64,000 bases of DNA, taken from the NCBI GenBank assembly GCA_964421085.1, contig CAYQVO010000002.1, positions 91,134 to 155,133 on the forward strand, given 5' to 3'. Position 1 is the stretch's first letter; each line of letters starts with the position of its first letter. Positions 5,134-38,622 of the stretch are shown here, piece after piece. Source of the DNA: an uncultured Bdellovibrionales bacterium (lineage in GTDB: Bacteria; Bdellovibrionota_C; UBA2361; CAYQVO01). The notes beneath the pieces are model-generated. The model did not search any database, was not told where the DNA came from, and saw only the letters and a program-made list of their open reading frames with translations. The translations under genes and the position numbers were made by a program.

Positions 5134-5207
5134 TACCGCCCTCGCAGCAAAGGTACCTGTCTGAGGTTTTCTGCGGATCGTTGCAGAAAGGTCATCGCTG
5201 CAGACCC

Positions 5208-8207: not shown

Positions 8208-8210
8208 ATC

Positions 8211-17785: not shown

Positions 17786-18769
17786 ATGTTAGATGCGCGT
17801 GTTCAAAAGCTGGATAAGAAAAACCTGTACCTCCTTTCTCTGCTCGATTCAAACTGCCGGATGCCCCTTTCGGAAATGGGCGCAAAGCTTCGCATGACCA
17901 AAGAAAGCATTCACTACCGCATAGGCGAACTGGAAAAGTCGGGGATCATCGATCGCTACTACGTCATCATCGACACCGCAAAACTGGGCTACTATTCGTT
18001 CAAACTCTACCTTCAGCTGCAGCGGGTCCGAGGACCGAGCATCGCATCATTTGCCGGGTTCCTGGCGGATGACCCAGCGGTGTACTGGCTTGCGCATACG
18101 ATAGGCAAATTTGACATTATCGTCGGACTTTGGGTGCAGAACCAGATGGAGTTCGACTCGTTTCTAGTGCGGTTGATGAAGAAGCACGGGGCGAAGATTG
18201 CTGCAAAGCAGTTTACGATCACAAAGTATGGGTTTCAAACGAGCAGAAAGTGGCTCTTCGACAATCAAAACCCGAGCCTGTCAATAATCGGAGGACCTGC
18301 CTTCCAGCATTCCATCGACGCCCTGGACTGGAAAATTCTTTCCCTGCTCTCGACGAACGGAAGGCTCTCCTATTCGAAAATTGCGCAGGAGTGCGGCTCG
18401 ACTGCCGCAACGGTAATTTCCCGGGTAAGGAAACTGGAGAAGTCAGGCGTCATCACGGCGCACCGCATTCACCTGAATCTGGAGAAGCTCGGCATGGAAT
18501 TCTACAAACTCTTCGTCGTGCTGTCCGACAAGACCGAGACTCTCGAAAAGAAAATGATCGAGTACTGCAGCAGGCACCGCAACGTGCTGAATGTTTTGAC
18601 GTGCGTGGGTCCCTGGGACATGGAAATCGAGATAGAGGCGAAGTCTCTCGCCGAACTGAACGAAGTCACACTCGAACTACGGGGTAAATGGCCGAAGAAC
18701 GTGCACTCGGTGGAGTTGGTGTCCATTGTGTCCGAGAAGACGCCGGTATTTTTGCCGAAGGCGAAATAG
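17786..18769 (+). CDS. Lrp/AsnC-family transcriptional regulator with two tandem HTH-RAM modules
   Basis: 327 aa. Two AsnC-type HTH segments (LDKKNLYLLSLLDSNCRMPLSEMGAKLRMTKESIHYRIGELEKSGII and LDWKILSLLSTNGRLSYSKIAQECGSTAATVISRVRKLEKSGVI), each followed by a RAM-like domain. Confidence 0.8.
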   Translation: MLDARVQKLDKKNLYLLSLLDSNCRMPLSEMGAKLRMTKESIHYRIGELEKSGIIDRYYVIIDTAKLGYYSFKLYLQLQRVRGPSIASFAGFLADDPAVYWLAHTIGKFDIIVGLWVQNQMEFDSFLVRLMKKHGAKIAAKQFTITKYGFQTSRKWLFDNQNPSLSIIGGPAFQHSIDALDWKILSLLSTNGRLSYSKIAQECGSTAATVISRVRKLEKSGVITAHRIHLNLEKLGMEFYKLFVVLSDKTETLEKKMIEYCSRHRNVLNVLTCVGPWDMEIEIEAKSLAELNEVTLELRGKWPKNVHSVELVSIVSEKTPVFLPKAK

Positions 18770-22172: not shown

Positions 22173-23018
22173 TTACGCCGCAAAGATCCCCAGTTGTTTC
22201 GGCCCGTGTCTTTCGAAAGCGGGAGGATCGAGTTTTTCCGGAGCAAGTTTCCGCACTGCCGAAATGAGATGGCGCGCAGAATCAGGTCGCAGCCAGTGGA
22301 ACCTGAACTGCCGCGCAAGCTGACGCGCGATATGAGACGCGCGCATTTTTTTCTCAACGGGTTCTGAACAGTCTGCAAGAGGCCTAATATAAATTCTGTC
22401 TGCGTTTTCCGCGAGCAGTTCAGCGAAAGAAGGCGCGTCCTGCACCCAGTCCCCGTACGGAAGGAGAGGGGCAGCCTGAAGAGTCACCGGAATCCCAAGT
22501 TTGCGGAGAGTCCGAACGGCTCTCAGCCGTTCTTCAATCCGCGGCAGACCTGGAGTGTATTTTGCGACACTCTCCTCGAGGGGAGTCTCGAGTCCTATTG
22601 TGACAGATGCATGAGAAGCGAGGCGTTTCAGAACCGGCACTGCAAGCACTATGAGGGGGCTTCTTGTCTGAACGACAAGCCTTGCGGGTGTGTAACGGGA
22701 AAAGAGATCGAGGAATCTCATGCTCGCGTCAAATCCTCCTTCAAATGGATGAAAAGGATCGCGTGTGACTCCGAAGTAAATGTATATCTCTCTGAGATTA
22801 CCCTGCCTCGAGAGGCGGAGCATATGGTTTTCGAGCTGTGTTAGGGGCGCCTTTCTGTTCAAAAGGTAGCGGCTTCTCAGCTGCGGAACGGCCCCCTCAT
22901 CGTTCAACCGCAGATGAAAGTGCTCTCTCGCGTCGGTTTCAGGAGCAAGTCGATGCGCGCCAACAGCCACTCCATCGGCAAATGAATCGACAGTGTAAAT
23001 GATGCGGGCCTCGTTCAT
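22173..23018 (-). CDS. Hypothetical protein
   Basis: 281 aa, soluble, with no motif I can name. Rich in Arg and Leu. No radical-SAM CxxxCxxC motif despite a faint resemblance to photolyase-like TIM barrels. Confidence 0.35.
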   Translation of the reverse strand: MNEARIIYTVDSFADGVAVGAHRLAPETDAREHFHLRLNDEGAVPQLRSRYLLNRKAPLTQLENHMLRLSRQGNLREIYIYFGVTRDPFHPFEGGFDASMRFLDLFSRYTPARLVVQTRSPLIVLAVPVLKRLASHASVTIGLETPLEESVAKYTPGLPRIEERLRAVRTLRKLGIPVTLQAAPLLPYGDWVQDAPSFAELLAENADRIYIRPLADCSEPVEKKMRASHIARQLARQFRFHWLRPDSARHLISAVRKLAPEKLDPPAFERHGPKQLGIFAA

Positions 23019-23258: not shown

Positions 23259-24275
23259 ATGGGCAGGTGGATAAATCGCGGACGTCATGATTCATGGGGG
23301 ATGCACAGAGCTGCTGAGAAAACCGAACCGCTTTCGATTTCGTGGCGGGCGGTCATGGCCGGAGCGATTCTCGTCCTGCTTGCCCTGGAAGTGGTCTGGT
23401 ACTTTGTGCTGCCGAAAAAAAGTGAATATGAGTCCACTCAGAACAAGCTTGCGGTTGGACAGGAGGCAAAGGCCGTCAGTCTGAACATCCCCATTTACCG
23501 GGCAGCGGGACCGGTCACGGCGAGTGTCCGCGAGCTTCAGCGCATCAGAAGAGATGTCGCGAAAAAGCACGATGCCCTCCTTTCGAAGCCGTACCGGAAT
23601 TTCGATCTGCTTTTTATCAGCGCGGTCAGCGGTAAACCCTGGTGGTCGGTTGAAGGATATTATTTTACCGGCAAATCGCAGACCGTCACCCCGGGAACTC
23701 CGGCGGAACTTCTCGGGATAGCGAATCCTTTTCTGCTTGTGGTGCCCGACTTCACCGGTCTCTCAATCCGGGGAAGGCTGGTCTGGGACGCGGCGAAAAT
23801 CAATCCCGATGTCCTTGCATCTCCGGAATTTCCGTTCCGCCCCGAGCCTCATGCTCTCGAATGGTTTCCGGGTCATGCGCGCGCCGAGGTCAAGTACAGC
23901 GTGTCGCACTACATTGACATGGTAAATCGATGGGCAAAGGCGCCTCTTACTGAAGCGGATATCCGCTTTGACGCTGTCACGTATAACGCGATGGAGTTCG
24001 GCTACCGGTACGCGGGCGTTCTGCTGAACGAGTCTTCGAATATCCAGCTCGAAACGGCCCCGTCACCTCCGGCGCCTGTGCTGATGACATATATCAACTC
24101 TCGCGATGCATGCGGAAATCCGGAAGGGTGCAACGTGAGAGCCGCCCTCCCGCGGGGGCTGGTCAATATTCGTGCCGCATATCTTCCGGCCCTTGCTGTG
24201 TTTGGACTTTGGAAGGAAAAACCGGAATCTTCAGAGGTGAAACCGGATCTCCGTTTTGCTATAATAATAAAGTAG
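23259..24275 (+). CDS. Membrane-anchored hypothetical protein
   Basis: 338 aa with a single N-terminal TM helix (MAGAILVLLALEVVWYFVL) and a large extracytoplasmic domain with no recognisable motif. Confidence 0.4.
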   Translation: MGRWINRGRHDSWGMHRAAEKTEPLSISWRAVMAGAILVLLALEVVWYFVLPKKSEYESTQNKLAVGQEAKAVSLNIPIYRAAGPVTASVRELQRIRRDVAKKHDALLSKPYRNFDLLFISAVSGKPWWSVEGYYFTGKSQTVTPGTPAELLGIANPFLLVVPDFTGLSIRGRLVWDAAKINPDVLASPEFPFRPEPHALEWFPGHARAEVKYSVSHYIDMVNRWAKAPLTEADIRFDAVTYNAMEFGYRYAGVLLNESSNIQLETAPSPPAPVLMTYINSRDACGNPEGCNVRAALPRGLVNIRAAYLPALAVFGLWKEKPESSEVKPDLRFAIIIK

Positions 24276-24987: not shown

Positions 24988-25758
24988 ATGCAGAGATCAA
25001 CTGCAGATGAAGTTGAAGTATTGAAAATGAGACAGCTTGTGGAGGATAGAGACATCACCATCGAGGCAGGCGCGTCTGTTCAGGAAGCGGATGCAGACCA
25101 TGTCGATATGCTGCTCCTTGGAGAGCTCAGCGGGAAGCTTTCTCCGGAACGCATCTATCCGTCGTCGATTGAAGGCAGGTGTGCGGATGAAAACGTCGAA
25201 CGTCACATTGCGCGTTACAGGTTCGCCGCGGAATTTATCGGCGAGGGTGATGTTGTGCTCGATGCGGGATGTGGAGCGGGGTATGGTTCCGCGATAATCG
25301 CAGCAAAGGCAGGATCAGTAATCGGTGTCGACATATCCGGCGAGGCTGTGGGTTTTGCCCTCGCGACATATCAGAGAAAGAACGTAACTTTTTTGTGCGA
25401 AGATCTGGCCAGGTTCACACGTAAAGACGGAGAGTTCGACGGTGTAGCATGCATCGAAACATTGGAACATCTCGCACCGGAATTGTGCAGGAGTTTCATG
25501 AGAGCAGTCCGGCGATTGCTCAAACCCGGGGGGGTTCTAATAGCGTCATCTCCCATGCTGCGTTACAAAAACGGAAAGCCTTTCATCACGAATCCTCACC
25601 ACATCAACGAAATGCCAAGAGATGCGCTCCTGAGATTTTTCGTCGAAACTCTCCCGGGTTTTGGGTTTCAGTTCTTTCACCAGAAACAGAACGTTTTCAC
25701 GCCTCTTCTCGATGAGAACACAGGGTTTTGTGTCGTCGTGGCGCGGAAGGAAGGATGA
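24988..25758 (+). CDS. Class I SAM-dependent methyltransferase
   Basis: SAM-binding motif VVLDAGCGAGYGSAIIA, then motif II/III (DGVACIETLEHL, LKPGGVLIASSP). 256 aa. Confidence 0.8.
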   Translation: MQRSTADEVEVLKMRQLVEDRDITIEAGASVQEADADHVDMLLLGELSGKLSPERIYPSSIEGRCADENVERHIARYRFAAEFIGEGDVVLDAGCGAGYGSAIIAAKAGSVIGVDISGEAVGFALATYQRKNVTFLCEDLARFTRKDGEFDGVACIETLEHLAPELCRSFMRAVRRLLKPGGVLIASSPMLRYKNGKPFITNPHHINEMPRDALLRFFVETLPGFGFQFFHQKQNVFTPLLDENTGFCVVVARKEG

Positions 25759-26648
25759 TGCCGCCCGATCCCGGTAAAACAATCGCGGATAATCTGCAAC
25801 GGGTAGATGAACTAGTGGAAGGCAGCCTCCGGATTCTCGACGGTTATCCGCTCTTCAGCTGGCTGGAGATCACAGCGACGGATTCGTGCAATCGACGGTG
25901 CGTATTCTGTCCGCATCCGGCAGCTCAGTCAAAGGCCGGCCACTTCATGGCAAAAGCATTGTATGAAAAAATAGCGGTTGAGCTCGAGGCGGTGGGATAC
26001 TGTGGAACTGTGATGCTGGCAGGATACGGAGAACCCCTTCTTTCACGGAATATAGTGGACATGACACGTGTCTTTGCCGGAATCTGCAACACTGAAATCA
26101 CAACCAACGGCGATCCCCTGACACCGCGGTTGATCACGGAACTGATGAACGCCGGAGCTTCGAGGCTCATCGTCAGCCTTTACGACGGCCCCCATCAAAT
26201 CGAGAAATTCTCCTCTATGTTCGCGGAGGCAGGGGCCCCGTCCGTGTTCTACGTTCTGAGAGACCGATGGTATCCGGCGGAAAAAGATTTCGGTCTCAAA
26301 CTGACCAACCGCGCAGGGACCGTTTCTGCCGGGAATCAACCCCCTGTCGATGAGAGCCGGGCATGCTTTTACCCGCACTATATGATGATGGTAAACTGGG
26401 AGGGCAGTGTGTACCTGTGCACTCAGGACTGGAACCGGAAGCAAGCCTGCGGAAACCTCACGACAAGCTCGCTTCTGGAGGTATGGACGTCTCCGCCTTT
26501 CAGGAAATACCGGACGCTTCTTGCAGATGGGCGGCGCGCAATCGAGCCTTGTTCAGAGTGCAACGCTGATGGAATGATGCACGGGAGGAATCATGCGCGC
26601 GGATGGGGGATTTTTTACGGGAAAATGCCGGCGAATGAACCACGATAA
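25728..26648 (+). CDS. Radical SAM enzyme with C-terminal SPASM/twitch domain
   Basis: CxxxCxxC cluster motif (TDSCNRRCVFCPHP), GGEP-like motif (GYGEPLL), and a C-terminal auxiliary-cluster cysteine pattern (CFYP...YLCTQDW...ACGNL...EPCSECN). Overlaps the upstream methyltransferase and the downstream aminotransferase, so they are translationally coupled. Confidence 0.8.
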   Translation: MCRRGAEGRMMPPDPGKTIADNLQRVDELVEGSLRILDGYPLFSWLEITATDSCNRRCVFCPHPAAQSKAGHFMAKALYEKIAVELEAVGYCGTVMLAGYGEPLLSRNIVDMTRVFAGICNTEITTNGDPLTPRLITELMNAGASRLIVSLYDGPHQIEKFSSMFAEAGAPSVFYVLRDRWYPAEKDFGLKLTNRAGTVSAGNQPPVDESRACFYPHYMMMVNWEGSVYLCTQDWNRKQACGNLTTSSLLEVWTSPPFRKYRTLLADGRRAIEPCSECNADGMMHGRNHARGWGIFYGKMPANEPR

Positions 26649-27984
26649 ATTGAAAGATCCATCTCCTCCTGCCTCACTCACGCGGGATCTGATGGAATCC
26701 ATGCCCGATAGAATCCTGAATGAGAGCTACGGGAAGGCGCCCGGTTCCCTCTATATCCGCAGCGCATCCGGATGTTTTATCGAAGATATCGACGGCAGGC
26801 AGTACATCGACATGGCGCTTGGAGGTGGTACCGCGATTCTTGGACATGCCGGTGCCTGTGTCACGGATCGTATCATTTCCCGGATTAAGTCCGGCGCCAT
26901 TTACGCAGTCCCAAATCCCATCGCGCATCAGTATGGCGAAGTTCTGCATGAAGCGATGCCCTGGTTCTCGCATTTCGCTTTCTGCAGCACCGGGTCGGAG
27001 GCGACGATGCGGGCTGTCCGCATTGCAAGGGCCTTTAACGGCAGGCGGAAGATTGGACTGTTCAGCGGCGGCTGGCATGGTTCGCACGATATGGTTCTTG
27101 TGGAGGAGGATTATTCGGGGCCGGAAGCAGAGCCGCGGATGGTTCTGAAATCAGCAGGCACGCCGGAGGAGATCAAAGATCTCATCGTCTTCCTTCCTTA
27201 CAACCATCCTGACGCGTTCGAGCTGATTCGAAAAAATCGATCCGAACTCGCAATGATCATGATTGAGCCGTCCCAGGGATCCAACCCACGGGATGACGTC
27301 GTTCAGTTTCTTCGCGATCTGAGGAAGGTGACGGAGGAAACTGACATACTGCTCTGCTTCGATGAGATCATAACGGGCGGGAGGCTCGCCCTGGGCGGAG
27401 CTCAGGAACTGTACGGGATTCATGCGGATCTCGCGACTTACGGAAAGGTGCTTGGGGGAGGTCTTCCAATAGGAATCGTCGGTGGAAGAGAGGAGGTAAT
27501 GCGTGTCATTCGACCCTCCGCCGCGGAGAATCGCACTCCTGTGTTTCTTGGAGGGACTTTTTCCGCAAATCCGCTCTCTGTTGCGGCAGGGATGGAGGTG
27601 ATGAGGTATCTCCGGGAAAATGAAGCGGTCATCTATCCGTGTTTGAATGAGAACGGAGCTTTGTTGAAGAACGGTGTGAACGAATTCTGCGAAGCACGAA
27701 ATATTCCCGCATATATGACCGGAGCCGGATCGATGCTTCGGCTCGTTTTCAGCAGCCGCTCCGTCAGGTCCCGCCGTGAACGGGATTTTGCCGAAGTAAA
27801 TCCGGAGGTGCAGAAAGAATTTTATGCATCGCTTCTCGCATCGGGCGTGCATGTGGGAACGAACCGGCTTAATTTTCTCTCGATTTGTCATGATCAGACG
27901 ATTATACGGAAGGTGCTGGACTCGTATACGGAAAGCCTCGATAAATTCACCGTGGCGGGGAGATTCCGGAGATCTGCGGAATGA
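26635..27984 (+). CDS. Class-III (PLP, fold type I) aminotransferase, glutamate-1-semialdehyde aminomutase-like
   Basis: Motifs GSEATMRAVRIARAFNGRRKI and DEIITGGRLALGGAQELYGIHADLATYGKVLGGGLPIGIVGGREEVM (PLP lysine region). The start is uncertain (26593, 26635 or 26695). Confidence 0.8.
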   Translation: MNHDKLKDPSPPASLTRDLMESMPDRILNESYGKAPGSLYIRSASGCFIEDIDGRQYIDMALGGGTAILGHAGACVTDRIISRIKSGAIYAVPNPIAHQYGEVLHEAMPWFSHFAFCSTGSEATMRAVRIARAFNGRRKIGLFSGGWHGSHDMVLVEEDYSGPEAEPRMVLKSAGTPEEIKDLIVFLPYNHPDAFELIRKNRSELAMIMIEPSQGSNPRDDVVQFLRDLRKVTEETDILLCFDEIITGGRLALGGAQELYGIHADLATYGKVLGGGLPIGIVGGREEVMRVIRPSAAENRTPVFLGGTFSANPLSVAAGMEVMRYLRENEAVIYPCLNENGALLKNGVNEFCEARNIPAYMTGAGSMLRLVFSSRSVRSRRERDFAEVNPEVQKEFYASLLASGVHVGTNRLNFLSICHDQTIIRKVLDSYTESLDKFTVAGRFRRSAE

Positions 27985-28366: not shown

Positions 28367-29749
28367 TTATTTTCTGAGGGCGAGCCTCTGATAAACAAAA
28401 TCCGGCGCTTTGCGGGCTGTGGCTTCTTCATAATGCGCCTTTGCCGTCACGGCATCCGAAGGATCCTGAGAGGAGACAAGTTCCTCCGCGACGATCCGGA
28501 GGATTTCGTGGATTCCTTCACCGCTTTTGACACCTTTCATCCAAAGCTCCTTTATCCGGCCAGTGTGCAGGGAGAGGTCCGGCGAATCTGCTGACAACTC
28601 CTCCGCATCGAACATCGGAAATTCTATCGGAGAGGCTCTGTTTCCAGGTTTGATTGTAATTCTCGGCATGTATGCTTCGGGAAGATTCACACTGTGAAGA
28701 AATTCAGCGATTTCATTCTCGCTCTCTTTCTTCAGCTGGAACCGCGTGTCGTCCAGACATATTCCGAAGGAATCTCCGCACTTTTTCAACCGGGACACGG
28801 TGTTCATGAACTTCTCATACCCAGGAGAGGGGATAAGGCCGCCTCCCGCAATTTTCGAGATATGAGAGTCATTAAGCCCTGGTCCAATGCACCGGTCATC
28901 GGAGTATTCAAGAGGTTTATTTCGAGCATTTTGCCCCGCGAACAGCTCGTCAAAACGGATTTCGAAATCGCTCTCGATACTCCGGTAAGGTATCATCGAG
29001 AACTGCGAGTGGAGCGCGGCAAAGTACACAGCGAACACCTCATTCAGGAATTCCGGCATCACGAAATCCCTTCCGGACATCCTGGCAGCCGTTATCAACG
29101 CTTTCGAAAGGAGATACAGGTCGAAATCCCGGAAAAGAACCAGCAGTTCCCTGAAGTAGAGGAGGAAGGGGACTGTGTATGTGGTTGCTTCACCCCCGAA
29201 GAGGGCACTGCGGCAGAGTGACTGGAGCTTGACATTGAAATGCGTGAGAGCTTCGAGATCGCGCCTTTGAGCGTAAATGACATTATCGTGCATCAAAAAA
29301 GGCATGCTCAGCCATGCCGGAAAGACGTGAACTTTTCCCTGAAATATCTGCGGGAAGGAACCAAAGGGGGTGATTTGCGGCACTTCCCGCCTGTTCAGCG
29401 CGGGGAACAGCTGCTTCATGGAAGGGGAATCTCTGTCGGCTCTGATACGGAAAATGAGGCTGTCATCGGGACACAGCGACAGCCCATTAAACAGGGTCGC
29501 ATGCTGCTGCATGAAATATGCATGCATCGGGAGAAGGTCTACTGGCTCTGAAGAAACAGTCGTGATGCCGTATTTTCGCAGCTCGGACTGCAGGTGCGGT
29601 CTTCCGACAAGCTCCTCTTTCCATGTCGAGAAGATAATTTCATCGACAAGACCGTCAGATCGCCACTGGAGCAGCCGCGTGATGGTTACCATGAACTCGA
29701 GTGAGTCACGTATCTGACCAGTCACAATGGCATAGATCCGTTTTCTCAC
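28367..29749 (-). CDS. Hypothetical protein, paralog A of a divergent pair (unknown family)
   Basis: 460 aa. The N-terminal roughly 250 aa align with the protein at 29859 (YAIVTGQIRDSLEFMVTITRLLQWRSDGLVDEIIFSTWKEEL vs WAIICGLVRDRRAFEEKINSLVQWRSEGILEETVVSTWLGEL; LCPDDSLIFRIRADRD vs SCPDDAHVLKLRADLF; FPQIFQGKVHVF...DNVIYAQRRDLEALTHFNV vs WPQIFNERVVVG...GDVYFYGLRDDLKKLVTFTV). I do not recognise the family. Confidence 0.5.
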   Translation of the reverse strand: MRKRIYAIVTGQIRDSLEFMVTITRLLQWRSDGLVDEIIFSTWKEELVGRPHLQSELRKYGITTVSSEPVDLLPMHAYFMQQHATLFNGLSLCPDDSLIFRIRADRDSPSMKQLFPALNRREVPQITPFGSFPQIFQGKVHVFPAWLSMPFLMHDNVIYAQRRDLEALTHFNVKLQSLCRSALFGGEATTYTVPFLLYFRELLVLFRDFDLYLLSKALITAARMSGRDFVMPEFLNEVFAVYFAALHSQFSMIPYRSIESDFEIRFDELFAGQNARNKPLEYSDDRCIGPGLNDSHISKIAGGGLIPSPGYEKFMNTVSRLKKCGDSFGICLDDTRFQLKKESENEIAEFLHSVNLPEAYMPRITIKPGNRASPIEFPMFDAEELSADSPDLSLHTGRIKELWMKGVKSGEGIHEILRIVAEELVSSQDPSDAVTAKAHYEEATARKAPDFVYQRLALRK

Positions 29750-29858: not shown

Positions 29859-31019
29859 ATGAGAAACTGGGCGATAATCTGCGGATTGGTGAGAGACAGG
29901 AGGGCTTTCGAGGAGAAGATCAATTCTCTCGTACAGTGGAGGTCGGAGGGGATTCTCGAAGAGACAGTTGTTTCCACCTGGCTCGGAGAACTCAATGCTT
30001 ATGAAGGCCTTTCGAAGAGCCTGGCCGACAAAGGTGTCATTGTTCTGGAGAGCCTCGAGCCGGAGCTGATCCTTTCGGGTCACAGGATCCATCAGATGAA
30101 GACGCTCGCATACGGGTTGGAATCGTGCCCGGATGACGCTCATGTACTGAAGCTCAGGGCTGATCTCTTCTCTTTTTTCCCCGGTATAAAGCAGGTGCTG
30201 GAAGGGCGGGTGGATACGGCCATTGCGCCGGATCCCGGATGGCCGCAGATCTTCAATGAGCGAGTTGTTGTGGGCACCTTCCTGCCCATTCAGCCATTTT
30301 TCATCGGGGACGTTTACTTCTATGGATTGAGAGACGATCTTAAAAAGCTTGTTACATTCACAGTGGAGCCGGAACTATGCTCTCTGCTGATGAATCCCGA
30401 ACAGGTTTTTCATTTTGCACCCTTCCGGAACCATTTTCAGTTCTTCTTCCAGTATTTCCGGATCAATCCGGGCCTTGTACATCACAGCGTTCAGATGGCG
30501 AGCGATCTCGTGAGGTTCCTGCTCGACGAACCATTTTTCCTGAAAACACTCGCGTCCTGGTTGATGCTTCTCCGGAGGTATTACAGGGTCGGATTCTTCG
30601 AGCGAAGCGAAGGACATTCGCTGCAGGCAGCGGAAGAATTCGCAGGAGTCTCGCTGCCGGAATTCCTTGACCCGATGCTGGAATGTGGGCCTTCATTCCG
30701 CTATGTGGTAAGGCCTGCCAACGCCGTGGGTGGGTCTGATGACGCATGGGTTGCCCCCTGCCTCAACGGAGATTTTCAGCATGATGTGTTCCGCGACCGT
30801 TTCATGGAAGCAGTGGACAGCTTTCCGGATTTTGAATCCTTCCAGAGATTCGGCCAGTCCCCGCTCTACCTTTCAAGTGATGCGATAGAGTTCGCCCGCA
30901 GGCTCAAAAAGAGATTTCCGGATGCGCCCTTTGTCCTGGAAGATCTCCCCGAATCGAGGGGGAGGAGTGTAAGGATCCAGGGGAAACCTTTCGACGGAAT
31001 GGTCAGAGCGGGCCGCTGA
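29859..31019 (+). CDS. Hypothetical protein, paralog B of a divergent pair (unknown family)
   Basis: 386 aa, homologous to 28367..29749 (see there). Divergently transcribed from a shared 109-bp intergenic region. Confidence 0.5.
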   Translation: MRNWAIICGLVRDRRAFEEKINSLVQWRSEGILEETVVSTWLGELNAYEGLSKSLADKGVIVLESLEPELILSGHRIHQMKTLAYGLESCPDDAHVLKLRADLFSFFPGIKQVLEGRVDTAIAPDPGWPQIFNERVVVGTFLPIQPFFIGDVYFYGLRDDLKKLVTFTVEPELCSLLMNPEQVFHFAPFRNHFQFFFQYFRINPGLVHHSVQMASDLVRFLLDEPFFLKTLASWLMLLRRYYRVGFFERSEGHSLQAAEEFAGVSLPEFLDPMLECGPSFRYVVRPANAVGGSDDAWVAPCLNGDFQHDVFRDRFMEAVDSFPDFESFQRFGQSPLYLSSDAIEFARRLKKRFPDAPFVLEDLPESRGRSVRIQGKPFDGMVRAGR

Positions 31020-31027
31020 GCTTGAGA

Positions 31028-31909
31028 TCACCGTATCAGCTTACTGTACATTTCAGGATAATCCGTGCAGATCGCGTCCGCGCCTGTTGATACAAGATCC
31101 TTTGCCCGCGATAACACACGTTCGATTGATCCTCCATCCTCGTGCGCCTCTCCACCGGCAAGGGCAGGGGATGATGAATGAAGTTCCGGGCTGACGAGGG
31201 CCACGGAAAACCCTTCGCTCCGGGCCGACTCGATGATGTCCCGGGTGTAAAACGCCTTCTTCCGCCCGTTGACATCGGCTCGATCCCACTCATCCAGCCA
31301 TATCCAGTCAAAGACATGTCTGTATGGGAGGACAGCATCGAGGCTGTAGAGCGTGTCTGAAACACACTTGCTGTATCTCTCGATATCGAACGGGTGCGCA
31401 ACCGAAGGTGCAAGGTGAATATCCCGAAGTTTTTTTCTCAGACATGACGCGGCGTCAATGGTGAGATCGAAAACAAGCATGTTCTTGTGCAGTTCTTCGA
31501 ACCCCCCAAGAATGTCTGCGAGAACCTCAAGGTTTTTTTCTGACTGATGATGTCCTTTGAGGTGGAGTGCCTTGAGCGCCGATGATGAAACGGTCCGTAT
31601 CAGAGCGAGGATGTCCTGTAATGTCATTAAATCCGGCGCGGCGTCCCGCACTTCGTCCGCCATAAGGTCGTCAAATCTCCTTCGGTCCTTCTCAGCCGAT
31701 ATTCTCGCTATGTCGCAGTCATGCCAGATGAACGGCTGAAGGTCGCGGCTGAATACGACATCGAATTCGATTCCAAACCCCCGCGTCAGATGGCTCCTGA
31801 AAGCTTCGGGGGACGACTCTCGGTGCAGGAACGCCGCATTGTCCGGCTCGAGCCCCCGGTGAGTCACTATGAAGGGTGGAGAGATACGATCAATGACAGG
31901 TGACGTCAT
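31028..31909 (-). CDS. Glycerophosphodiester phosphodiesterase (GDPD) family protein
   Basis: N-terminal GDPD catalytic signature IVTHRGLEP...ESSPEAFRSHLTRGFGIEFDVVFSRDLQPFIWHD (the HR..E..DV..HD motif). C-terminal ADAICTDYP. Confidence 0.7.
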   Translation of the reverse strand: MTSPVIDRISPPFIVTHRGLEPDNAAFLHRESSPEAFRSHLTRGFGIEFDVVFSRDLQPFIWHDCDIARISAEKDRRRFDDLMADEVRDAAPDLMTLQDILALIRTVSSSALKALHLKGHHQSEKNLEVLADILGGFEELHKNMLVFDLTIDAASCLRKKLRDIHLAPSVAHPFDIERYSKCVSDTLYSLDAVLPYRHVFDWIWLDEWDRADVNGRKKAFYTRDIIESARSEGFSVALVSPELHSSSPALAGGEAHEDGGSIERVLSRAKDLVSTGADAICTDYPEMYSKLIR

Positions 31910-32630
31910 TTGCGGCCTCGTAAGCCTGCAGGTCTTCCGGAGTTCCGAGACCGTGCATGGCCCATGGTGCGATTTCGAAAATTCCCACCTTCTTCCGCGC
32001 CAGCAGTATCTCGTTATAGACGGGACAGACGTAAAACTCGCCGTTTACTCTGATGTTTTTCTCTATCATCGATACCGCACCCTCGAAGAAGAGGGAACCT
32101 TGCTCGAAATAGTAAATGCCGACAGTCGCATGAGAGCTTATCGGTTCCTTTTCCGCGACGCATTCCACCAGCCCCTCCGGCGATAACTTTGCATAAGACC
32201 ATTTTGGATGGGCTGACTGGAATGTGAGAATGTCTCCGTCCAGTCCGCGTTCCTGTGCATCCGATATGAGGGAGTCAATGTCGAGATCTATCAGCTGGTC
32301 GCTGTTTGCAAGGACCAGAGGGGAATCATTATTGAAAAAGTCGGCGGCAAGCAAAACCGTACACGCTGCGCCTTCCGTGACTTTTTCCACAGTGACGATG
32401 TTGCATCCGGGGGCCAGCGCGTCAAGAAGTTCTTCAAGATTGAACTGCTGACAATGCTCGCGCCGGCATATAAAGGTGAACTTATGATCGATGTCAGGCC
32501 GCACGTTATCGATGACATGGGAAATCATCGGCCTGCCTTTTACGTCTATAAGAGGTTTGGGCAGGGAGTACCCCGCCTCCGCGAAACGTTTCCCGTTGCC
32601 TGCCATTGGAATTACAATGTTGATCGGCAT
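31890..32630 (-). CDS. Sugar/alcohol-phosphate nucleotidyltransferase (LicC/IspD/MobA-like NTP-transferase fold)
   Basis: N-terminal motif IVIPMAGNGKRFAEAGYSLPKPLIDVKGRPMISHVIDNV is the typical glycine-rich nucleotide-binding loop. 246 aa. Overlaps the GDPD and HAD genes, forming an operon. Confidence 0.7.
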   Translation of the reverse strand: MPINIVIPMAGNGKRFAEAGYSLPKPLIDVKGRPMISHVIDNVRPDIDHKFTFICRREHCQQFNLEELLDALAPGCNIVTVEKVTEGAACTVLLAADFFNNDSPLVLANSDQLIDLDIDSLISDAQERGLDGDILTFQSAHPKWSYAKLSPEGLVECVAEKEPISSHATVGIYYFEQGSLFFEGAVSMIEKNIRVNGEFYVCPVYNEILLARKKVGIFEIAPWAMHGLGTPEDLQAYEAANDVTCH

Positions 32631-33262
32631 TCTTCCATTCCCTCCATGAGCTCTCCGGACAAAAATTCAGTAAAGAGAGACTTGTTCACTTCATTGTACG
32701 AATCGACTCCAATAAGGAACCCCCCGCTCGCACGGGCTGCGGCTTTCCCGTGGTCGGAATCTTCCACGATCGCGCACTGTTCAGGAGAAAGTTTCAACAG
32801 CTGAAATGCGCGAAAATAGATCTCCGGATCGGGCTTCGGCAGTCTCACGTCTTCGTTCCCAAGCACTAGAGAGAAGCAGTCGAAGATGCCGCTTTTCTTC
32901 AGCATCAACTCGACACTTCTGTTGACAGCGTTTGAACACACGGCGAGTGTAAATCCCGACTTCCGCAGCAGTTCGAGCATTTCGATTTTTGCGGGATCAG
33001 GACGACAGCGCGCACAGATTGTTTCATAAGTGTATCGCTGCTTGAGGGAAATAACCGGCTTATGAAGCGCCGAAGGGAAGCCTTTGTGAGCAGACAGCGC
33101 TTCGAGCTTCTTCCGGGTAGGAAGACCGTTATAGAATGAAAGATGTTCTTTGCGGGAAATGGTAAATCCAAACGTCCCCAGCGCTTTGTTCAGCGCTTCG
33201 TAGTGCCACTCAGCGGCGTCGACAAGAACTCCGTCGAGATCGAATATTACAGCTTCAATCAT
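32612..33262 (-). CDS. HAD-superfamily hydrolase (subfamily IA, beta-phosphoglucomutase/phosphatase-like)
   Basis: Motif I MIEAVIFDLDGVLVD at the proposed start (ATG 33262, preceded by AGGGA). Motifs II/III (LAVCSNA, GNEDV...KPDPEIYF, VEDSDHG). The ORF track extends the frame to 33355. Confidence 0.8.
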   Translation of the reverse strand: MIEAVIFDLDGVLVDAAEWHYEALNKALGTFGFTISRKEHLSFYNGLPTRKKLEALSAHKGFPSALHKPVISLKQRYTYETICARCRPDPAKIEMLELLRKSGFTLAVCSNAVNRSVELMLKKSGIFDCFSLVLGNEDVRLPKPDPEIYFRAFQLLKLSPEQCAIVEDSDHGKAAARASGGFLIGVDSYNEVNKSLFTEFLSGELMEGMEECRSTL

Positions 33263-33433
33263 TCCGCATCCCTGCTCAAAAGATCCATGGGCAACTTCAC
33301 AACGCGCAGGCGCTGAAGTTCCCTCAGTAGAATACTCGGCTGAAAAGATCCGCATCTTTAAAAGTTTCTTGTCAGAAAGGACCAGGAATTTTTCCTATGA
33401 AAGGACCATGGAACATTGTAAAGTTCCGGGAGA

Positions 33434-34081
33434 ATGGACATTTTTAAATTTGCAGAAGGAATAGAGCGAGGAGCTGGTTCCGCACGGCTTCCCGGCGGTT
33501 CTTTCAACGCCCACTTTGGAAGCGCCTTCAAAGCAGTCCGCAGAGTGTCTCCGGCCGATTTCGTCCGCTTCAGCATTCTCAACTTCGCCGTTCAGCAGCT
33601 GTCGGTCCGGAGCGCATTCATGCCCGCCACTGAACGATATCTCTTTGCGGGAGGTCTTTCAGATACCGACTTTGCGGCTTCTCTCATCGGGATGGTCCCT
33701 TTTCTCCGGGCTTATTTTGCGATTCCCCCCGGAGGGGAGAGTGCAAGTGTTTCTGAAGCGAAACAGATCATCTCCGGAGGCCGGGAAGACGATTTGAAGA
33801 CATTCGAAGTGGTGAACAGGACTCCGGCCGGGTTTCTGTTACAGGAGCCTGAAGCGTCGTTCGGCCTTGTTTCTCTGATCTCGAACGGACAGGAGACTTT
33901 TTCCCGGGAATTAGTTCCCGTTCTGGCTGATTCTCTCAGTTCCGGCGGAACCGCTGTCATGACGGTTCCCTCCGGCGAGATTCCTGAGAATGCGGCCGGC
34001 TTTTCGAGAGTCTGGACATCAACACTCGAGCCGCTTTGTCCGTTTGGGGGATTTACTCTCTGCATACTGAGGAGATTCTGA
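33434..34081 (+). CDS. Hypothetical protein
   Basis: 215 aa. First gene of a plus-strand operon with the GT61 and radical-SAM fusion genes (stop/start abut at 34081/34082). No recognisable motif. Confidence 0.4.
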   Translation: MDIFKFAEGIERGAGSARLPGGSFNAHFGSAFKAVRRVSPADFVRFSILNFAVQQLSVRSAFMPATERYLFAGGLSDTDFAASLIGMVPFLRAYFAIPPGGESASVSEAKQIISGGREDDLKTFEVVNRTPAGFLLQEPEASFGLVSLISNGQETFSRELVPVLADSLSSGGTAVMTVPSGEIPENAAGFSRVWTSTLEPLCPFGGFTLCILRRF

Positions 34082-35239
34082 TTGAACAGCGTGGAATTCA
34101 GGGCGGAGGATTCGTTTTTGACGCTCGAACGCGTTTCGTCGATGAGTGATGAGCCCGAAAGAGAAAGCCTTGTCCTTTTGCGGGAAGCAACACAGTATCC
34201 CAATGCAGAACCGCTCTTTGTGTATGCAGATGAGGCCATACCTGAAGTGTCGCGCAGCCTCCTGTACCGCCAGGCATGGAGCATCGATCCGTCGTACTGT
34301 GTCAAACTTCCCGGCGGCTCGGTATACGGGGAGTGCGGGATAGTGACGGGAGGAGGGGTTTTTCTGCATGATCTCTCGACGCTTGCCGGACGGCATCGCA
34401 AGCCGGCAGAAGTAACCCGGCAGGAAGACGGGAGTGAAATCGCAGGATTCAAAACTGTGAAGCCGGAATACCGCGACTGCTCCGCGGCAATCCTGTCTCC
34501 CCTTATCGCGTGCGGCAAAAATCATTCTCACTGGCTTTTTCATGCGCTGCCTAAAGTGCAGATTTTCAGGGATGCGTCGGTTGCCCCCGACTTTTTCCTT
34601 GTTCTCCCGGCAGTTGCCGGATATCAGCGGGACACCCTGAAAGCACTCGGAATAGGCGATGATCGGATACTTGTGCGCGATCCGGCGCAACCGATGAAGT
34701 TCCGTGAACTCTATGCGTCGTACACGCAGAGCGACGTTTCACCGGACATGACGATCTATGATGAAATCATATCTAAAGTGGATCGGGGAGAGGAAGGACC
34801 TGAAAGAATCTATGTATCCAGAATGGATGCCAGGGGTATGCGGCGTTTCATCAACGAGGAGCAGGTCATTGATGTTGCCCGGAACAACGGATTCCATATA
34901 GTCACCCCCTCCGAGCTTTCGTTTGAAGACGAAGTAAGAATTTTCCGGAATGCCCGCATTATTGCCGGTCCCGTCGGTGCGGGTCTTTACAATGCCGTCT
35001 TCACCCGGCCGGGCTGCGTCATTGTAGCCATGAGCGAACCAGCTTATGTAATGGACTGGCCGCTGCAGCTCGCGTCGCTTCGAAAACATTCCATAGGCTA
35101 TCTTCTCGGGAACAGTTTTCTCTCGATGGAACCGGTACACCGGGGGTGTCACAACAGCTGGGTTCTCAATCCGGCTCTCTTCGATCTGGCGCTTAACAAC
35201 CTTCTTTCCGGCAAAGACGCGGCCAGGGCGGGCAGGTGA
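34082..35239 (+). CDS. Glycosyltransferase family 61 / DUF563 protein
   Basis: HWLFHALPKVQIF motif, and a C-terminal block RRFINEEQVIDVARNNGFHIVTPSELSFEDEVRIFRNARIIAGPVGAGLYNAVFTRPGCVIV that is characteristic of DUF563/GT61 (EOGT-like) transferases. Confidence 0.65.
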   Translation: MNSVEFRAEDSFLTLERVSSMSDEPERESLVLLREATQYPNAEPLFVYADEAIPEVSRSLLYRQAWSIDPSYCVKLPGGSVYGECGIVTGGGVFLHDLSTLAGRHRKPAEVTRQEDGSEIAGFKTVKPEYRDCSAAILSPLIACGKNHSHWLFHALPKVQIFRDASVAPDFFLVLPAVAGYQRDTLKALGIGDDRILVRDPAQPMKFRELYASYTQSDVSPDMTIYDEIISKVDRGEEGPERIYVSRMDARGMRRFINEEQVIDVARNNGFHIVTPSELSFEDEVRIFRNARIIAGPVGAGLYNAVFTRPGCVIVAMSEPAYVMDWPLQLASLRKHSIGYLLGNSFLSMEPVHRGCHNSWVLNPALFDLALNNLLSGKDAARAGR

Positions 35240-35300
35240 TCTGCTGCGTGGGATTGCACGCCCCCGCAAGAAATCGGCATACTGAAGGCTGGAGCTCAGA

Positions 35301-38300
35301 ATGGATCCGAACAGGCTGATAATCGACTTTAAAAAGCAACTTGGTAACAGAAACACCTCCGCTGTTCATGCTCTCGATATCTTCCGTGATTTGAGAGACG
35401 TTCTGGAGCAGGAAACAAAATCCGATCCTCTCCTTGCCGCAATAAGGGAAAATATACTGCGGCTTTTCATGCAGAGATCCTGTCTGCTTCCCGACCTGGA
35501 ACGTGAGGCGGCTGTTTTGAACCTGATTCTTCAGGATTCCCGTTCCAATACTGCTGAAATATCCTCCGGGCTGGAAGAATGGGGGCGCTCAGTCGCGGAA
35601 CTTTCTGAAATCCTGCGTGGAATCAAAACCCATGTGACACAGATGGCGACGCGACACCGTATGACGGAGCAGAAACCTTCCGTGGTCCGGATTGAAAACA
35701 GTAATTTCAGCGAGGCTCGTGAACTCAATATAAAGATCCTCGCCTGCGAGATGCTGCTTGGCAGCACCGATCCGGCTCCCTTTCCTCCGAACATGCAGGT
35801 GGAATCAACCAGCAGGTGCAATGCGCGGTGCAGAATATGCGGGCACTTCTTCCATCCCGCCAGGGCATACAGAGATCTCGATTTTCAGGTGTTTCTCAAA
35901 TTGTCGCCCGTTCTTCCGTATGTCCAGTGCCTTGAACTGCACACTTATGGAGAAGCCTCTCTCGCGCCGCATTTCACCGCCATGTGCGAAGTCTGCAGGA
36001 GCTTCGGCTGCAGAACGCATGTGCTTACAAACGGCTCGACTCTTGGGGTGGATAGTCCCCTGGCAGACGTAGACCAGATTGGAATCAGCGTTGATTCAGA
36101 CAACGAACGCACCTTTGACGCCGTCCGCAAAGGGCTGCGGTTCAAAACAGTGATCGAAAACATCAAAGCGTTTCGCCGGCGGAATCCGGACAATTTCATG
36201 TACTTTCTGGTGACGATACACCGGGCGAATGTAGATGAAATATCCGGCATAGCCGGACTAGCCTGCGATCTGGGCCTTCAGGCCGTCTGCCTCAGTCTCA
36301 TGTCGGCCATTCATCCGTCACTGCGGCCGGTCACTTTAACGGCCCAGGACGTTCCTCTTTACCGGGAGGAAGTGGAGAAAGCAGAAAGAATCTGCTCGAA
36401 GCGCGGCGTAGATGTGTATGATTACGCTTTTCTGGACGGTCTCCCCGATCAGACGGAACCTCTGAACAAGGAGGCATGTTTAAGGGTGTTCGAGTCGCTT
36501 ATCCCTCCATCTGCCGGCGCGCCGCCCGATATTGAAGAGTTGACAACGAGGCTCGCAAAGATTGAGTGCGGCGCATATCCTGCGTCCCTGCACCGGTTTT
36601 TCACACTGGAAGCCGCGTCTTTCGAATCCACTCGAAAAGCGGAGATCGAAAGAGTCCATGAAGACACTTCTATGGAACCTGTCACGGTCGATACCGGCAG
36701 GCTGAAGGAACGGCTGCATGAACTCCGGAGTGAAATAGAAAGGCGGGGCAGGGATGCGCTCGTAATTCCGTACTGTACCGCCCCCTGGTTCAGGCTTGAA
36801 GTGAAGGCGGACGGAGGGATCTTCCCCTGCTGCAGCTGGAAAGGACCACCGTTTGCCGATCTTGCAGTTCAGTCTGTCGCGGAGATATGGCACGGGCCGT
36901 TCATGACGGCGCTCAGGCAGGGATGTTACGGCGAAGGAGAACTCCCTCCTTTCTGCCTGAACTGCAGGAGCATAGACCGTTATCAGGGCCTGACTGAAAC
37001 GATCAGCACGATGAACGAATTCGGCCTGGACTATAACACAATCCGGAAGATTCCCGGGTTTTCTCCTCCGCCCGGGAAACTCCAGCTTATACGCGCGGGC
37101 GCGCCGGAGATTGAATACGTTCCCATTGATAAATCGTATCCGGGAGGATTTTACGAACTCCGGGGGGATGCAGAAGGGCGGGGGAACAGGAGCAGTGGTT
37201 ACGACTTTGTCATCTCGCCCGGCCCCAGGCTCTTCTGCGAAAGACCTTCGAGCATGCGAAGCAGAAAGATTTCCTGTGGAGTTCTCGGCGGCGCTTCCCT
37301 TCCTTTGAAGGACATCCTGAAGCTCGAAGGACGCCCGCGTGTATCGATAACAGAAACCGCTCATGAATTATTCCCCTCCGGTCTTTTGTTTGTGTCTGTC
37401 CGTTTCCGTAATGAAGGTGAAGTGCCGCTCTTCGGCAGGGATTCGCATCCCGATTGCGTGGACAGAGCGGGACTGCGCGTGCTTAAGCAGGAAGCCGGAG
37501 TCACATCGGCAGCGCGTGAAGAAAGAATGGATATGCCGTTTGAGTGGATACTCCCCGGATCGGAGTACCATATCTCGGGACTCTTTGACTTCTCGGGCCT
37601 TGAACCCGGGACATACACGGTGGAGACAGGAATTGTCCGGGAAGGAGAATTCTGGATTTCGGAGGAATCTGAACGGCGAAGCTTTGAAATAACCACGGCA
37701 GAAGCCTCAACCATGACTCCTGTCGAAGTGTCGAGAGTTCCGGGATCGAAAGGGATTGCGCTTACATTCGACGCGGGAGCGTCAATACCGCCTTCGGACG
37801 CCCTTCTCGATTTTCTGCAGAAGAGGCGGATGCAATGCACAGTTTTTCTGACCGGGAGGTCGATAGCCTCTTTTCCTGAACATGCGCGTCGCATCGCGAA
37901 TGAGGGGCATGAAGCGGCAAACCACACATACAATCATCCATGGCTGTCCTTTCTGCACGATCCCCATCCGGCGCAGGGAGTGGACAAAGACTTTCTCATG
38001 AAAGAGCTTTATTCCACCGAAGAGGCCTTCTTCAAAACGACAGGGCGCACGATGTCGAGACTCTGGCGGGCTCCCTACGGAGCAAGAAACGCGGAGATTC
38101 TCAAATGGGCGATGGAAGAAGGATTTACTCACGTTTTCTGGTCGCACGATTCAAACGACTGGAGGATAGGCTCTTCCCTTAATTCCATGAAGTGTACCCC
38201 GCAGAGCGTCTTTGAGACGCTTAAGAACAAACTTCGCCAGTTTGATGATGCCGATGGCGCTGTAGTTCTATTTCACCTCTCGACCTACAATCAACCGGAC

Positions 38301-38390
38301 ATGCTTTCAGAGATGTCGAAATTCATCGACTGGATTGCCGGCCGGGGTCTTGCCTTTCGGACGGCAGGCTCTCTTCTCACGATGATCTGA
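35301..38390 (+). CDS. 1029-aa fusion protein: N-terminal helical domain, radical-SAM core, SPASM domain, beta-rich linker, and C-terminal NodB-type polysaccharide deacetylase domain
   Basis: Radical-SAM cluster motif ESTSRCNARCRICGHFF at residues about 166-180. SPASM cysteines IPYCTAPWF...GGIFPCCSWKG...GCYGEGELPPFCLNCRS at about 490-560. NodB motifs IALTFDAGAS...CTVFLTGRSI...GHEAANHTYNHPWL at about 820-910, with conserved Asp, His and His positions present. Confidence 0.8.
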   Translation: MDPNRLIIDFKKQLGNRNTSAVHALDIFRDLRDVLEQETKSDPLLAAIRENILRLFMQRSCLLPDLEREAAVLNLILQDSRSNTAEISSGLEEWGRSVAELSEILRGIKTHVTQMATRHRMTEQKPSVVRIENSNFSEARELNIKILACEMLLGSTDPAPFPPNMQVESTSRCNARCRICGHFFHPARAYRDLDFQVFLKLSPVLPYVQCLELHTYGEASLAPHFTAMCEVCRSFGCRTHVLTNGSTLGVDSPLADVDQIGISVDSDNERTFDAVRKGLRFKTVIENIKAFRRRNPDNFMYFLVTIHRANVDEISGIAGLACDLGLQAVCLSLMSAIHPSLRPVTLTAQDVPLYREEVEKAERICSKRGVDVYDYAFLDGLPDQTEPLNKEACLRVFESLIPPSAGAPPDIEELTTRLAKIECGAYPASLHRFFTLEAASFESTRKAEIERVHEDTSMEPVTVDTGRLKERLHELRSEIERRGRDALVIPYCTAPWFRLEVKADGGIFPCCSWKGPPFADLAVQSVAEIWHGPFMTALRQGCYGEGELPPFCLNCRSIDRYQGLTETISTMNEFGLDYNTIRKIPGFSPPPGKLQLIRAGAPEIEYVPIDKSYPGGFYELRGDAEGRGNRSSGYDFVISPGPRLFCERPSSMRSRKISCGVLGGASLPLKDILKLEGRPRVSITETAHELFPSGLLFVSVRFRNEGEVPLFGRDSHPDCVDRAGLRVLKQEAGVTSAAREERMDMPFEWILPGSEYHISGLFDFSGLEPGTYTVETGIVREGEFWISEESERRSFEITTAEASTMTPVEVSRVPGSKGIALTFDAGASIPPSDALLDFLQKRRMQCTVFLTGRSIASFPEHARRIANEGHEAANHTYNHPWLSFLHDPHPAQGVDKDFLMKELYSTEEAFFKTTGRTMSRLWRAPYGARNAEILKWAMEEGFTHVFWSHDSNDWRIGSSLNSMKCTPQSVFETLKNKLRQFDDADGAVVLFHLSTYNQPDMLSEMSKFIDWIAGRGLAFRTAGSLLTMI

Positions 38391-38400
38391 CATTATTACG

Positions 38401-38622
38401 TCAGGTGCCTCCCTGCATAATCCTCAGGTAGTGCTCTACGCTCCTGTCGTAAGTTCTCTCCGCCTCGGCGTTGAAATAACATGCCGGAAGTTCCCGGCGT
38501 GCCCTGTGGTAGGCGATACACTTGCAGCACAGGCCGCGTTTGTCGCACGGATACGAGCAGTTGCAGTTTTTGAGGTTCTTTTCTTTTGAGCAGGTCGTCA
38601 TAATCCGGCTTCTCCTCCCCAT
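38401..38622 (-). CDS. Small Cys-rich protein (8 Cys, probable metal-binding), hypothetical
   Basis: 73 aa, [50 protein letters not shown]... Overlaps the 3' end of yraN on the same strand, so it is probably co-transcribed. Confidence 0.4.

Follow-up and report, generated by a model that had tools for sequence, protein, structure and literature searches.

Whether a radical S-adenosylmethionine (SAM) enzyme and a polysaccharide deacetylase can share a single polypeptide, and whether they would then act on the same molecule, is the question raised by a reading frame of 1029 codons in an uncultured Bdellovibrionales bacterium. The frame (35301..38390, + strand) lies in a stretch of 64,000 nucleotides (assembly GCA_964421085.1, contig CAYQVO010000002.1, positions 91,134 to 155,133), hereafter called the window. 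A first-pass annotation, made from the sequence alone, had described a fusion of a radical-SAM/SPASM enzyme with a deacetylase of the NodB type, i.e., of carbohydrate esterase family 4 (CE4), and had suggested sequential chemistry on one glycan or glycopeptide. The follow-up analysis supports the fusion itself, traces it to the joining of two complete proteins and points to a role in glycan tailoring.

An intact and selected reading frame

The frame is uninterrupted throughout its length and is preceded by a GGAG Shine-Dalgarno sequence (35291..35294, + strand), located 6 nucleotides before the ATG. The three recognisable modules of the first-pass annotation were recovered with Pfam hidden Markov models (HMMs), each above its gathering cut-off: Radical_SAM at residues 168-318 (40.0 bits, cut-off 29.5), SPASM at residues 492-555 (36.8 bits, cut-off 21.5) and Polysacc_deac_1 at residues 814-943 (86.2 bits, cut-off 23.1). 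No NCBIfam equivalog reached its cut-off for either the radical-SAM or the CE4 half.

An orthologue, P0002, is encoded at locus L001 of an independent Logan assembly (SRR21358178) and is the sole full-length relative among 5.8 billion clustered proteins. It consists of 1031 residues, shares 72% identity with the fusion and is collinear with it throughout, apart from two internal indels of one residue each and a C-terminus extended by 2 residues. Divergence between the orthologues is about equal in the N-terminal (71% identity) and the C-terminal half (73%). The Nei-Gojobori ratio of nonsynonymous to synonymous substitutions (dN/dS, with dS ~1) lies at 0.11-0.24 in each of seven segments, and the two linker segments, with values of 0.11 and 0.23, are no exception. 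A collinear orthologue under purifying selection indicates that the fusion is older than the divergence of the two genomes and was retained by selection. The frameshift or assembly artefact for which the first-pass annotation had advised a check is ruled out by the continuous frame of the second assembly and by purifying selection in all segments, and a real, selected fusion of these domain types is close to certain.

Neither a signal peptide nor a transmembrane segment is predicted in the fusion protein, which is therefore expected to reside in the cytoplasm, and this predicted location fits a radical-SAM enzyme. Scans for promoters and terminators returned background level only.

The radical-SAM half

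The protein begins with an all-helical domain of four long helices plus one (residues 1-~155; 35301..35765, + strand), which is delineated by model and alignment, matches no Pfam family and is common to the fusion and to a stand-alone family of ~600-residue radical-SAM proteins. The radical-SAM core (residues ~160-335; 35778..36305, + strand) is supported by Pfam, alignment and model. Its CX3CX2C motif, CNARCRIC, had been correctly spotted in the first reading and is located at residues 173-180 (nucleotides 35817-35840). The three cysteines of this motif, C173, C177 and C180, are invariant in 12 members of the family, as are G217-E218 (GGE-type), T243-N244-G245, C492 and C510. G217-E218 and T243-N244-G245 represent SAM-binding motifs. 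From the core, a long helical bridge (residues 336-489; 36306..36767, + strand), defined by alignment and model and containing a conserved EPL(N/D)KE sequence, leads to the auxiliary Fe-S domain (residues 490-575; 36768..37025, + strand); within the bridge, model confidence is low at residues 436-457.

The AlphaFold model of this half, built on the 12-sequence alignment (mean predicted local distance difference test score, pLDDT, 83.8; predicted template modelling score, pTM, 0.78), shows a four-helix N-terminal bundle, a partial TIM barrel, the long helical bridge and a Twitch hairpin. Motif, HMM score and partial TIM-barrel fold all place the protein in the radical SAM superfamily (PF04055), and the assignment of the N-terminal half to the SPASM/Twitch class of radical-SAM enzymes is certain.

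The SPASM cysteine pattern of the first-pass annotation needs to be qualified. A full SPASM domain is defined by seven cysteines in the order CX9-15GX4C - gap - CX2CX5CX3C - gap - C. The auxiliary region of the fusion contains CX12GX4C (C492...G505...C510) followed by CX2C, formed by C552 and C555, which are conserved in at least 90% of the 12 family members. The CX5CX3C element is absent and no cysteine occurs between residues 555 and 646 of the fusion. Thus, although the Pfam SPASM HMM scores above its cut-off, only four cysteines are conserved instead of seven, and a full, two-cluster SPASM domain is ruled out by the cysteine content. Twitch denotes a truncated form of SPASM that binds one auxiliary cluster (PMC9012708). 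The Twitch part of NF033640 matches all 12 family members, and the four family-conserved cysteines align with the cluster ligands of the dehydrogenase BtrN, which identifies the auxiliary domain as Twitch-type, with one predicted cluster.

The CE4 half

The CE4/NodB domain (residues 806-1029; 37716..38387, + strand) is supported by Pfam, by its motifs and by a model with pLDDT values of 80-98. Structure prediction, as proposed in the first-pass annotation, was successful for this domain and for the radical-SAM half modelled alone, whereas the full-length AlphaFold model is informative only for the CE4 domain. Foldseek aligned the CE4 model with Bc1960, PdaA, PdaC and an acetylxylan esterase at template modelling (TM) scores of 0.74-0.88.

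The CE4 motifs of the fusion are TFDAG (residues 822-826), HTYNH (875-879), RAPYG (923-927), DSNDW (950-954) and LFH (990-992), and motifs 2-5 are conserved in the family. In motif 1, the first aspartate (D824) is present and invariant, while the second is replaced by alanine in the fusion and by glycine or alanine in every member of the stand-alone family in which a beta-strand domain precedes CE4 (the beta+CE4 family). The catalytic Asp and His motifs claimed at the outset are therefore present as far as the base aspartate and the histidines are concerned, and HMM and fold confirm the CE4 assignment, but the metal-binding aspartate of motif 1 is missing.

With the exception of the N-acetylmuramic acid (MurNAc) deacetylases, which lack the metal-coordinating aspartate, all CE4 enzymes share a conserved motif 1 (PMC5855634). 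TFDAG is also found in the closest generic CE4 proteins, and PdaA of B. subtilis carries TFDNG. Since the loss of this aspartate is shared by the closest CE4 relatives and by the active PdaA, TFDAG does not indicate decay and was rejected as an argument for a pseudoenzyme. The clade of the fusion is further characterised by a ~9-residue insert after motif 2 and by LWRAP[YF]G in place of YRPPxG. Scores against the PdaA equivalog TIGR02884 (81.8 bits, cut-off 298) and the NodB equivalog TIGR04243 (77.2 bits, cut-off 240) stay below the respective cut-offs.

A conserved domain between the two halves

The region between the Twitch and CE4 domains had been described as a beta-rich linker of ~200 residues, a description that has to be abandoned: the region is a conserved domain, and it is also found with either family on its own. 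In the stand-alone beta+CE4 family, the equivalent of residues ~601-805 forms the N-terminal part and is conserved. Family alignment divides this part into an N-subdomain with the motif F[YF]E[LV] (residues 601-680; 37101..37340, + strand), which is 81% identical between the two orthologues at a dN/dS of 0.11, and an alignment-defined beta-strand domain outside any Pfam family (residues 681-805; 37341..37715, + strand). The beta-domain precedes CE4 in seven stand-alone proteins, and its residues ~681-800 are found directly after the radical-SAM-Twitch module in P0010 (E 6e-11) and P0025 (E 1e-6), both of which are devoid of CE4. The beta-domain is thus common to both families. Pfam and PDB searches with the beta-domain and with the N-terminal helical domain returned no matches.

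Rarity and origin of the fusion

With phmmer, 1.84 billion representatives, clustered at 50% identity, were searched exhaustively, which yielded 26,474 matches. Among the best 150 of these, only the fusion's own cluster covers residues 1-1029, and the inspection of multi-stretch or unusually long matches within the same 150 revealed no further combination of radical SAM and CE4; the search would miss a fusion whose two parts are very distant relatives and together score below ~120 bits. The homologue search suggested in the first-pass annotation thus led to one orthologue, P0002. Word-indexed searches, run with the complete protein as well as with either half, returned P0002 and generic CE4 domains only. 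The architectures observed are radical SAM alone, radical SAM followed by the beta-domain, beta-domain followed by CE4, and the complete series, which is confined to the fusion type. In the libraries searched, the fusion architecture was found in only two related uncultured bacteria, as judged from sequence matches.

Several long matches were considered as further fusions and rejected. P0013, P0042 and P0038 contain tandem CE4 repeats, P0020 and P0084 are radical-SAM proteins joined to glycosyltransferases (GTs) or to a second radical-SAM domain, and none of eight long CE4 matches contains a radical-SAM domain. Other long matches combine radical SAM with GT1/GT2 or with TPR, or CE4 with unannotated extensions. 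By their domain content, two of these proteins appear to be unusual giant glycan enzymes: P0020 (1637 residues) with a SPASM/Twitch domain, two radical-SAM cores, GT1 and GT2, and P0013 (1654 residues) with five tandem CE4 domains plus GINT1_N, which is related to GlcN-inositolphosphorylceramide transferase.

The origin of the fusion can be read from its stand-alone relatives. Proteins of ~600 residues (P0004, P0006, P0008, P0009, P0014, P0015 and others) align to residues 5-596, and in the family alignment the radical-SAM proteins end at '…PPPGKLQL', i.e., at residue 596 (…GKLQL*). Proteins of 375-442 residues (P0017, P0021, P0023, P0026, P0030, P0031 and P0033) align to residues 612/680-1026, and the beta+CE4 family begins at residues ~601-612. 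Stand-alone radical-SAM genes stop at the same point at three genomic loci from metagenome-assembled genomes (MAGs) of Bdellovibrionota and Pseudomonadota, which were obtained with a scan of genome contigs seeded with a 5-sequence alignment; the scan seeded with the fusion protein alone gave no matches. The end points of both families indicate that the fusion is an end-to-start join of two complete proteins through ~15 junction residues (residues 597-611, IRAGAPEIEYVPIDK; 37089..37133, + strand), a position supported by family alignments and genomic loci.

Proposed function and alternative explanations

The fusion is best explained, with a probability of roughly 0.55, as a genuine, cytoplasmic, bifunctional glycan-tailoring enzyme, born of end-to-start fusion and acting within a GT61-CE4-radical-SAM sequence on one sugar. 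A ~600-residue radical-SAM enzyme (helical N-domain, core, bridge and Twitch) would have been joined to a ~420-residue protein comprising N-subdomain, beta-domain and CE4. In the following scheme, the substrate, the step order and the type of radical reaction are all what we infer. The co-operonic GT61 (DUF563) glycosyltransferase, encoded directly upstream of the fusion (34082..35239, + strand; 76% identity to its L001 orthologue), would place a 2-acetamido sugar, resembling N-acetylglucosamine (GlcNAc) or MurNAc, on a cytoplasmic acceptor, from which the CE4 domain would strip the N-acetyl group. The radical-SAM domain would then cleave SAM to produce a 5'-deoxyadenosyl radical that takes a hydrogen from the same sugar, and the fully cysteine-ligated auxiliary [4Fe-4S] cluster could serve as an electron sink, as proposed for BtrN, while the sugar is oxidised or rearranged. 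The beta-domain would bind the common substrate. Consecutive action of CE4 and radical SAM on one acetamido-sugar substrate is plausible from the context, with the odds about even.

Several observations weigh against this assignment. Sugar-directed radical-SAM enzymes and peptide maturases score nearly alike against the radical-SAM half. The adjacency of stand-alone radical-SAM and CE4 genes, which in itself speaks for joint work of the two families, is a single case, observed at locus L003, where the radical-SAM gene is followed by a convergent CE4 gene for 320 residues with the signatures of the clade (TFDGG, the insert after motif 2 and LWRAPFG). At L004, no CE4 gene is present within 10 kb of the stand-alone radical-SAM gene, and at L002 the contig ends too near to judge. 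Finally, a metagenome scan seeded with the beta+CE4 alignment produced 80 CE4-only loci, and none of the 80 contained the radical-SAM family or the beta-domain.

The two halves could also belong to the same pathway and act at non-consecutive steps or on different molecules, with the fusion ensuring co-expression, stoichiometry or assembly, as is the case for many glycan-biosynthesis proteins with several domains. This would agree with the many partners found among relatives of each half (TPR repeats, GT1+GT2, tandem CE4, GINT1_N) and with the fact that most stand-alone members have no detectable partner nearby. It is nevertheless doubtful, because the shared beta-domain and the gene adjacency at L003 indicate a specific association, and because constraint on the linker segments is as strong as on the catalytic domains (dN/dS 0.11-0.23).

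The radical-SAM half might instead mature peptides or proteins, as most SPASM/Twitch enzymes do (SkfB, SuiB and anSME). In that case, the substrate of the fusion would be a glycopeptide or glycoprotein whose sugar is trimmed by CE4, and the GT61 family does include protein O-GlcNAc transferases. We consider this unlikely. Maturases of peptides that are ribosomally synthesised and post-translationally modified (RiPPs) are expected to carry a PqqD-like recognition domain, for which no equivalent was detected: the N-terminal 160 residues lack a Pfam match at E <= 1, and their model is an all-helical bundle, although a very divergent element could escape. No precursor-like open reading frame (ORF) was seen in the conserved flanks, where the sole conserved small ORF is a convergent DUF6485 gene. 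In addition, the neighbours are nucleotide-sugar and glycosyltransferase genes, and relatives of the radical-SAM half are joined to GT1/GT2 rather than to peptidases or transporters.

It is less probable still that the CE4 domain is something other than a simple hydrolase, for example an enzyme that transamidates or forms a lactam, or a non-catalytic module for sugar binding, by which the substrate is presented to the radical-SAM domain. Motif 1 reads TFD[A/G] throughout the clade, and the best solved relative is PdaA (E 8e-37), which is reported to transamidate and whose relative SwsB is described as a lactam cyclase (PMC10116595 and PMC12444981); CE4 pseudoenzymes such as BA3943 are also known. 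On the other hand, the base aspartate, both metal-binding histidines, the arginine, DxxDW and the acid histidine are all kept under purifying selection, and in a pseudoenzyme the loss of some of these would be expected. That the frame stems from faulty assembly or sequencing, or from decaying read-through across two genes, has a negligible chance of being correct, as the sole supporting circumstance, an otherwise unseen architecture, is outweighed by the same frame in two independent assemblies, purifying selection throughout, a conserved junction and a ribosome-binding site.

A wider and rather speculative scenario can also be drawn, in which a PdaA-type CE4 and a large BtrN-like Twitch radical-SAM enzyme would act on the GT61-installed acetamido sugar in an undescribed cytoplasmic pathway. 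Together with a BtrN homologue, an aminotransferase and a methyltransferase encoded nearby, they might produce an oxidised or diamino sugar or an amino-cyclitol, as part of a new envelope glycan or an aminoglycoside-like metabolite, with the beta-domain as a new substrate-presenting module that connects both enzyme families.

Both halves of the fusion belong to uncharacterised families, one of them comprising ~600-residue Twitch radical-SAM proteins that start with a helical domain, the other being a cytoplasmic CE4 clade devoid of the metal-binding aspartate. The fusion and the shared beta-domain provide a Rosetta-stone clue that both families may act on the same kind of substrate, and the acetamido sugar presumably made by the neighbouring GT61 offers a starting point for assigning both functions. 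If correct, radical-SAM and CE4 chemistry would here be united on one polypeptide for the first time. The reach of the finding is limited, as only two related genomes carry the fusion and no unresolved question depends on it.

Genomic context

The fusion closes a trio of genes on the same strand, which starts with unk215, an unannotated gene for 215 residues and the first gene of the putative operon (33434..34081, + strand; 72% identity to its L001 orthologue). The genes for unk215 and GT61 abut, and a gap of 61 nucleotides precedes the fusion. The order of the trio is kept in L001 at 72-76% identity, compared with 90% for the RNase HII encoded just downstream of the fusion, suggesting that the glycan genes evolve faster than housekeeping genes. 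In L001, the region upstream of the fusion orthologue (233-7513) contains two pairs of unk~225 and GT61, an extra GT61 and a Methyltransf_24-GT61 fusion of 802 residues, a local GT61 expansion that is missing from the window.

A 78-bp intergenic region separates the trio from a divergent operon (31028..33355, - strand), annotated as encoding a beta-phosphoglucomutase-family HAD protein, a sugar-1-phosphate nucleotidylyltransferase-like protein and a GDPD protein. This operon probably supplies an activated sugar, its tie to the fusion being one of position only. A further trio, located 9 kb upstream of the fusion, consists of a class-I methyltransferase (24988..25758), a 306-residue radical-SAM protein (25728..26648, + strand) and a HemL/GntE-like class-III aminotransferase (26593..27984). 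The radical-SAM protein is homologous to BtrN over nearly its full length (E 2.3e-27, residues 41-280 against BtrN 23-257), and the pairing of a radical-SAM dehydrogenase with a transaminase recalls the formation of amino-cyclitols or amino sugars. A sugar-phosphate cyclase was not seen near this trio. Taken together, the fusion operon, the divergent operon and the trio with the BtrN homologue make the region from ~25 to 38.4 kb look like a sugar/amino-sugar tailoring island. It is interspersed with unannotated ORFs for 460 (28367..29749, - strand), 386 (29859..31019, + strand) and 338 residues (23259..24275, + strand). Pfam and NCBIfam contained no significant match for these three ORFs or for unk215, and Pfam and PDB searches with unk215 and the 386- and 460-residue neighbours found nothing.

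The convergent DUF6485 gene next to the fusion (38401..38622, - strand; 29.9 bits) encodes a cysteine-rich protein of 73 residues. A ~215-bp block containing it is ~80% identical in L001 (~10650-10870), where the gene caller placed a 54-residue ORF on the opposite strand. Elsewhere in the window, a protein with tandem AsnC-type helix-turn-helix domains and a weak NirDL-like (siroheme decarboxylase-like) match is encoded at 17786..18769 (+ strand), and a partial-looking radical-SAM ORF (25.2 bits against the Pfam cut-off of 29.5) is located near it at 22173..23018 (- strand). A HldE-like heptose enzyme, PBP2/RodA and an SLT lytic transglycosylase represent Gram-negative features of the genome. 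For MreB, IMPDH, PBP2 and the HldE-like protein, no relative above 90% identity was found among ~15 billion proteins, save in the same Logan sample (IMPDH, RNase HII); sampling of the source lineage is very sparse. Neither tRNA nor rRNA nor any Rfam family was detected in the window.

At L003, in a Pseudomonadota MAG, the stand-alone radical-SAM gene is split into two ORFs (598..864 and 895..2049), with CX3CX2C in the first, which is probably due to a frameshift or assembly error, or reflects a pseudogene. A cytidylyltransferase-like gene adjoins the radical-SAM gene at L002. At L004, in a Bdellovibrionota MAG, the region downstream of the radical-SAM relative (3433-11415) encodes a 786-residue Amidase_2 protein (MurNAc-L-Ala amidase), a GT51 transglycosylase and a GT2+GT1 protein of 1233 residues. 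This peptidoglycan- and glycan-flavoured context may be relevant, the CE4 half of the fusion being PdaA-like.

Comparison with known systems

The best solved relative of the N-terminal profile is BtrN, the 2-deoxy-scyllo-inosamine dehydrogenase of the butirosin pathway (PDB 4M7S/4M7T; E 1.9e-14). Like the fusion, BtrN combines a radical-SAM core with a Twitch domain, and its four auxiliary-cluster cysteines (within BtrN residues 169-238, including a CxxC) align with C492, C510, C552 and C555. BtrN catalyses the two-electron oxidation of an amino-cyclitol, a small molecule resembling a sugar, with the auxiliary cluster proposed as electron acceptor (PMC9012708). However, BtrN comprises ~250 residues against ~600 in the radical-SAM unit of the fusion; the helical N-domain of ~155 residues and the helical bridge of ~150 residues are present in the latter only, and identity in structural alignments amounts to 12-19%. 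The fusion was rejected as a BtrN orthologue, because only two local stretches align and large extra domains are present; the full-length homologue is instead the protein encoded at 25728..26648. The sugar-directed radical-SAM enzymes BlsE, a cytosylglucuronate decarboxylase, and DesII share 12-16% identity with the fusion, and the BlsE model TIGR04466 was not among its NCBIfam matches at E <= 1.

The beta+CE4 profile has its best solved relative in the PdaA/MurNAc de-N-acetylase subgroup of CE4 (PDB 1W17, 1NY1), which has the same fold and likewise lacks the metal-binding aspartate in motif 1. PdaA is an exported sporulation enzyme with TFDNG...ENGYT and YRPPxG, whereas the clade of the fusion is characterised by TFD[A/G] and LWRAP[YF]G, a predicted cytoplasmic location and a genome of Gram-negative type.

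The closest precedent for the proposed series of reactions is found in hopanoid tailoring, where the glycosyltransferase HpnI adds GlcNAc, the deacetylase HpnK frees the amine and the radical-SAM enzyme HpnJ remodels the amino sugar (PMC13459092). The same pathway logic is proposed for the fusion, and BtrM and BtrD in butirosin biosynthesis follow it as well, but in both systems the enzymes are separate proteins, and the likeness drawn here is one of pathway. HpnJ belongs to a different radical-SAM class and, to our knowledge, the deacetylases of the Hpn and butirosin systems are not CE4 enzymes. The view of the first-pass annotation that no coupling of a radical-SAM/SPASM enzyme with CE4 had been described thus holds for a single polypeptide, as no such fusion was found in the literature and libraries searched; at the level of pathways, GlcNAc transfer, deacetylation and radical-SAM chemistry are already known to be coupled. 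The superfamilies, the folds and the pathway-level coupling were already known; what is new is a single-polypeptide architecture that ties two uncharacterised families together via a shared accessory domain.

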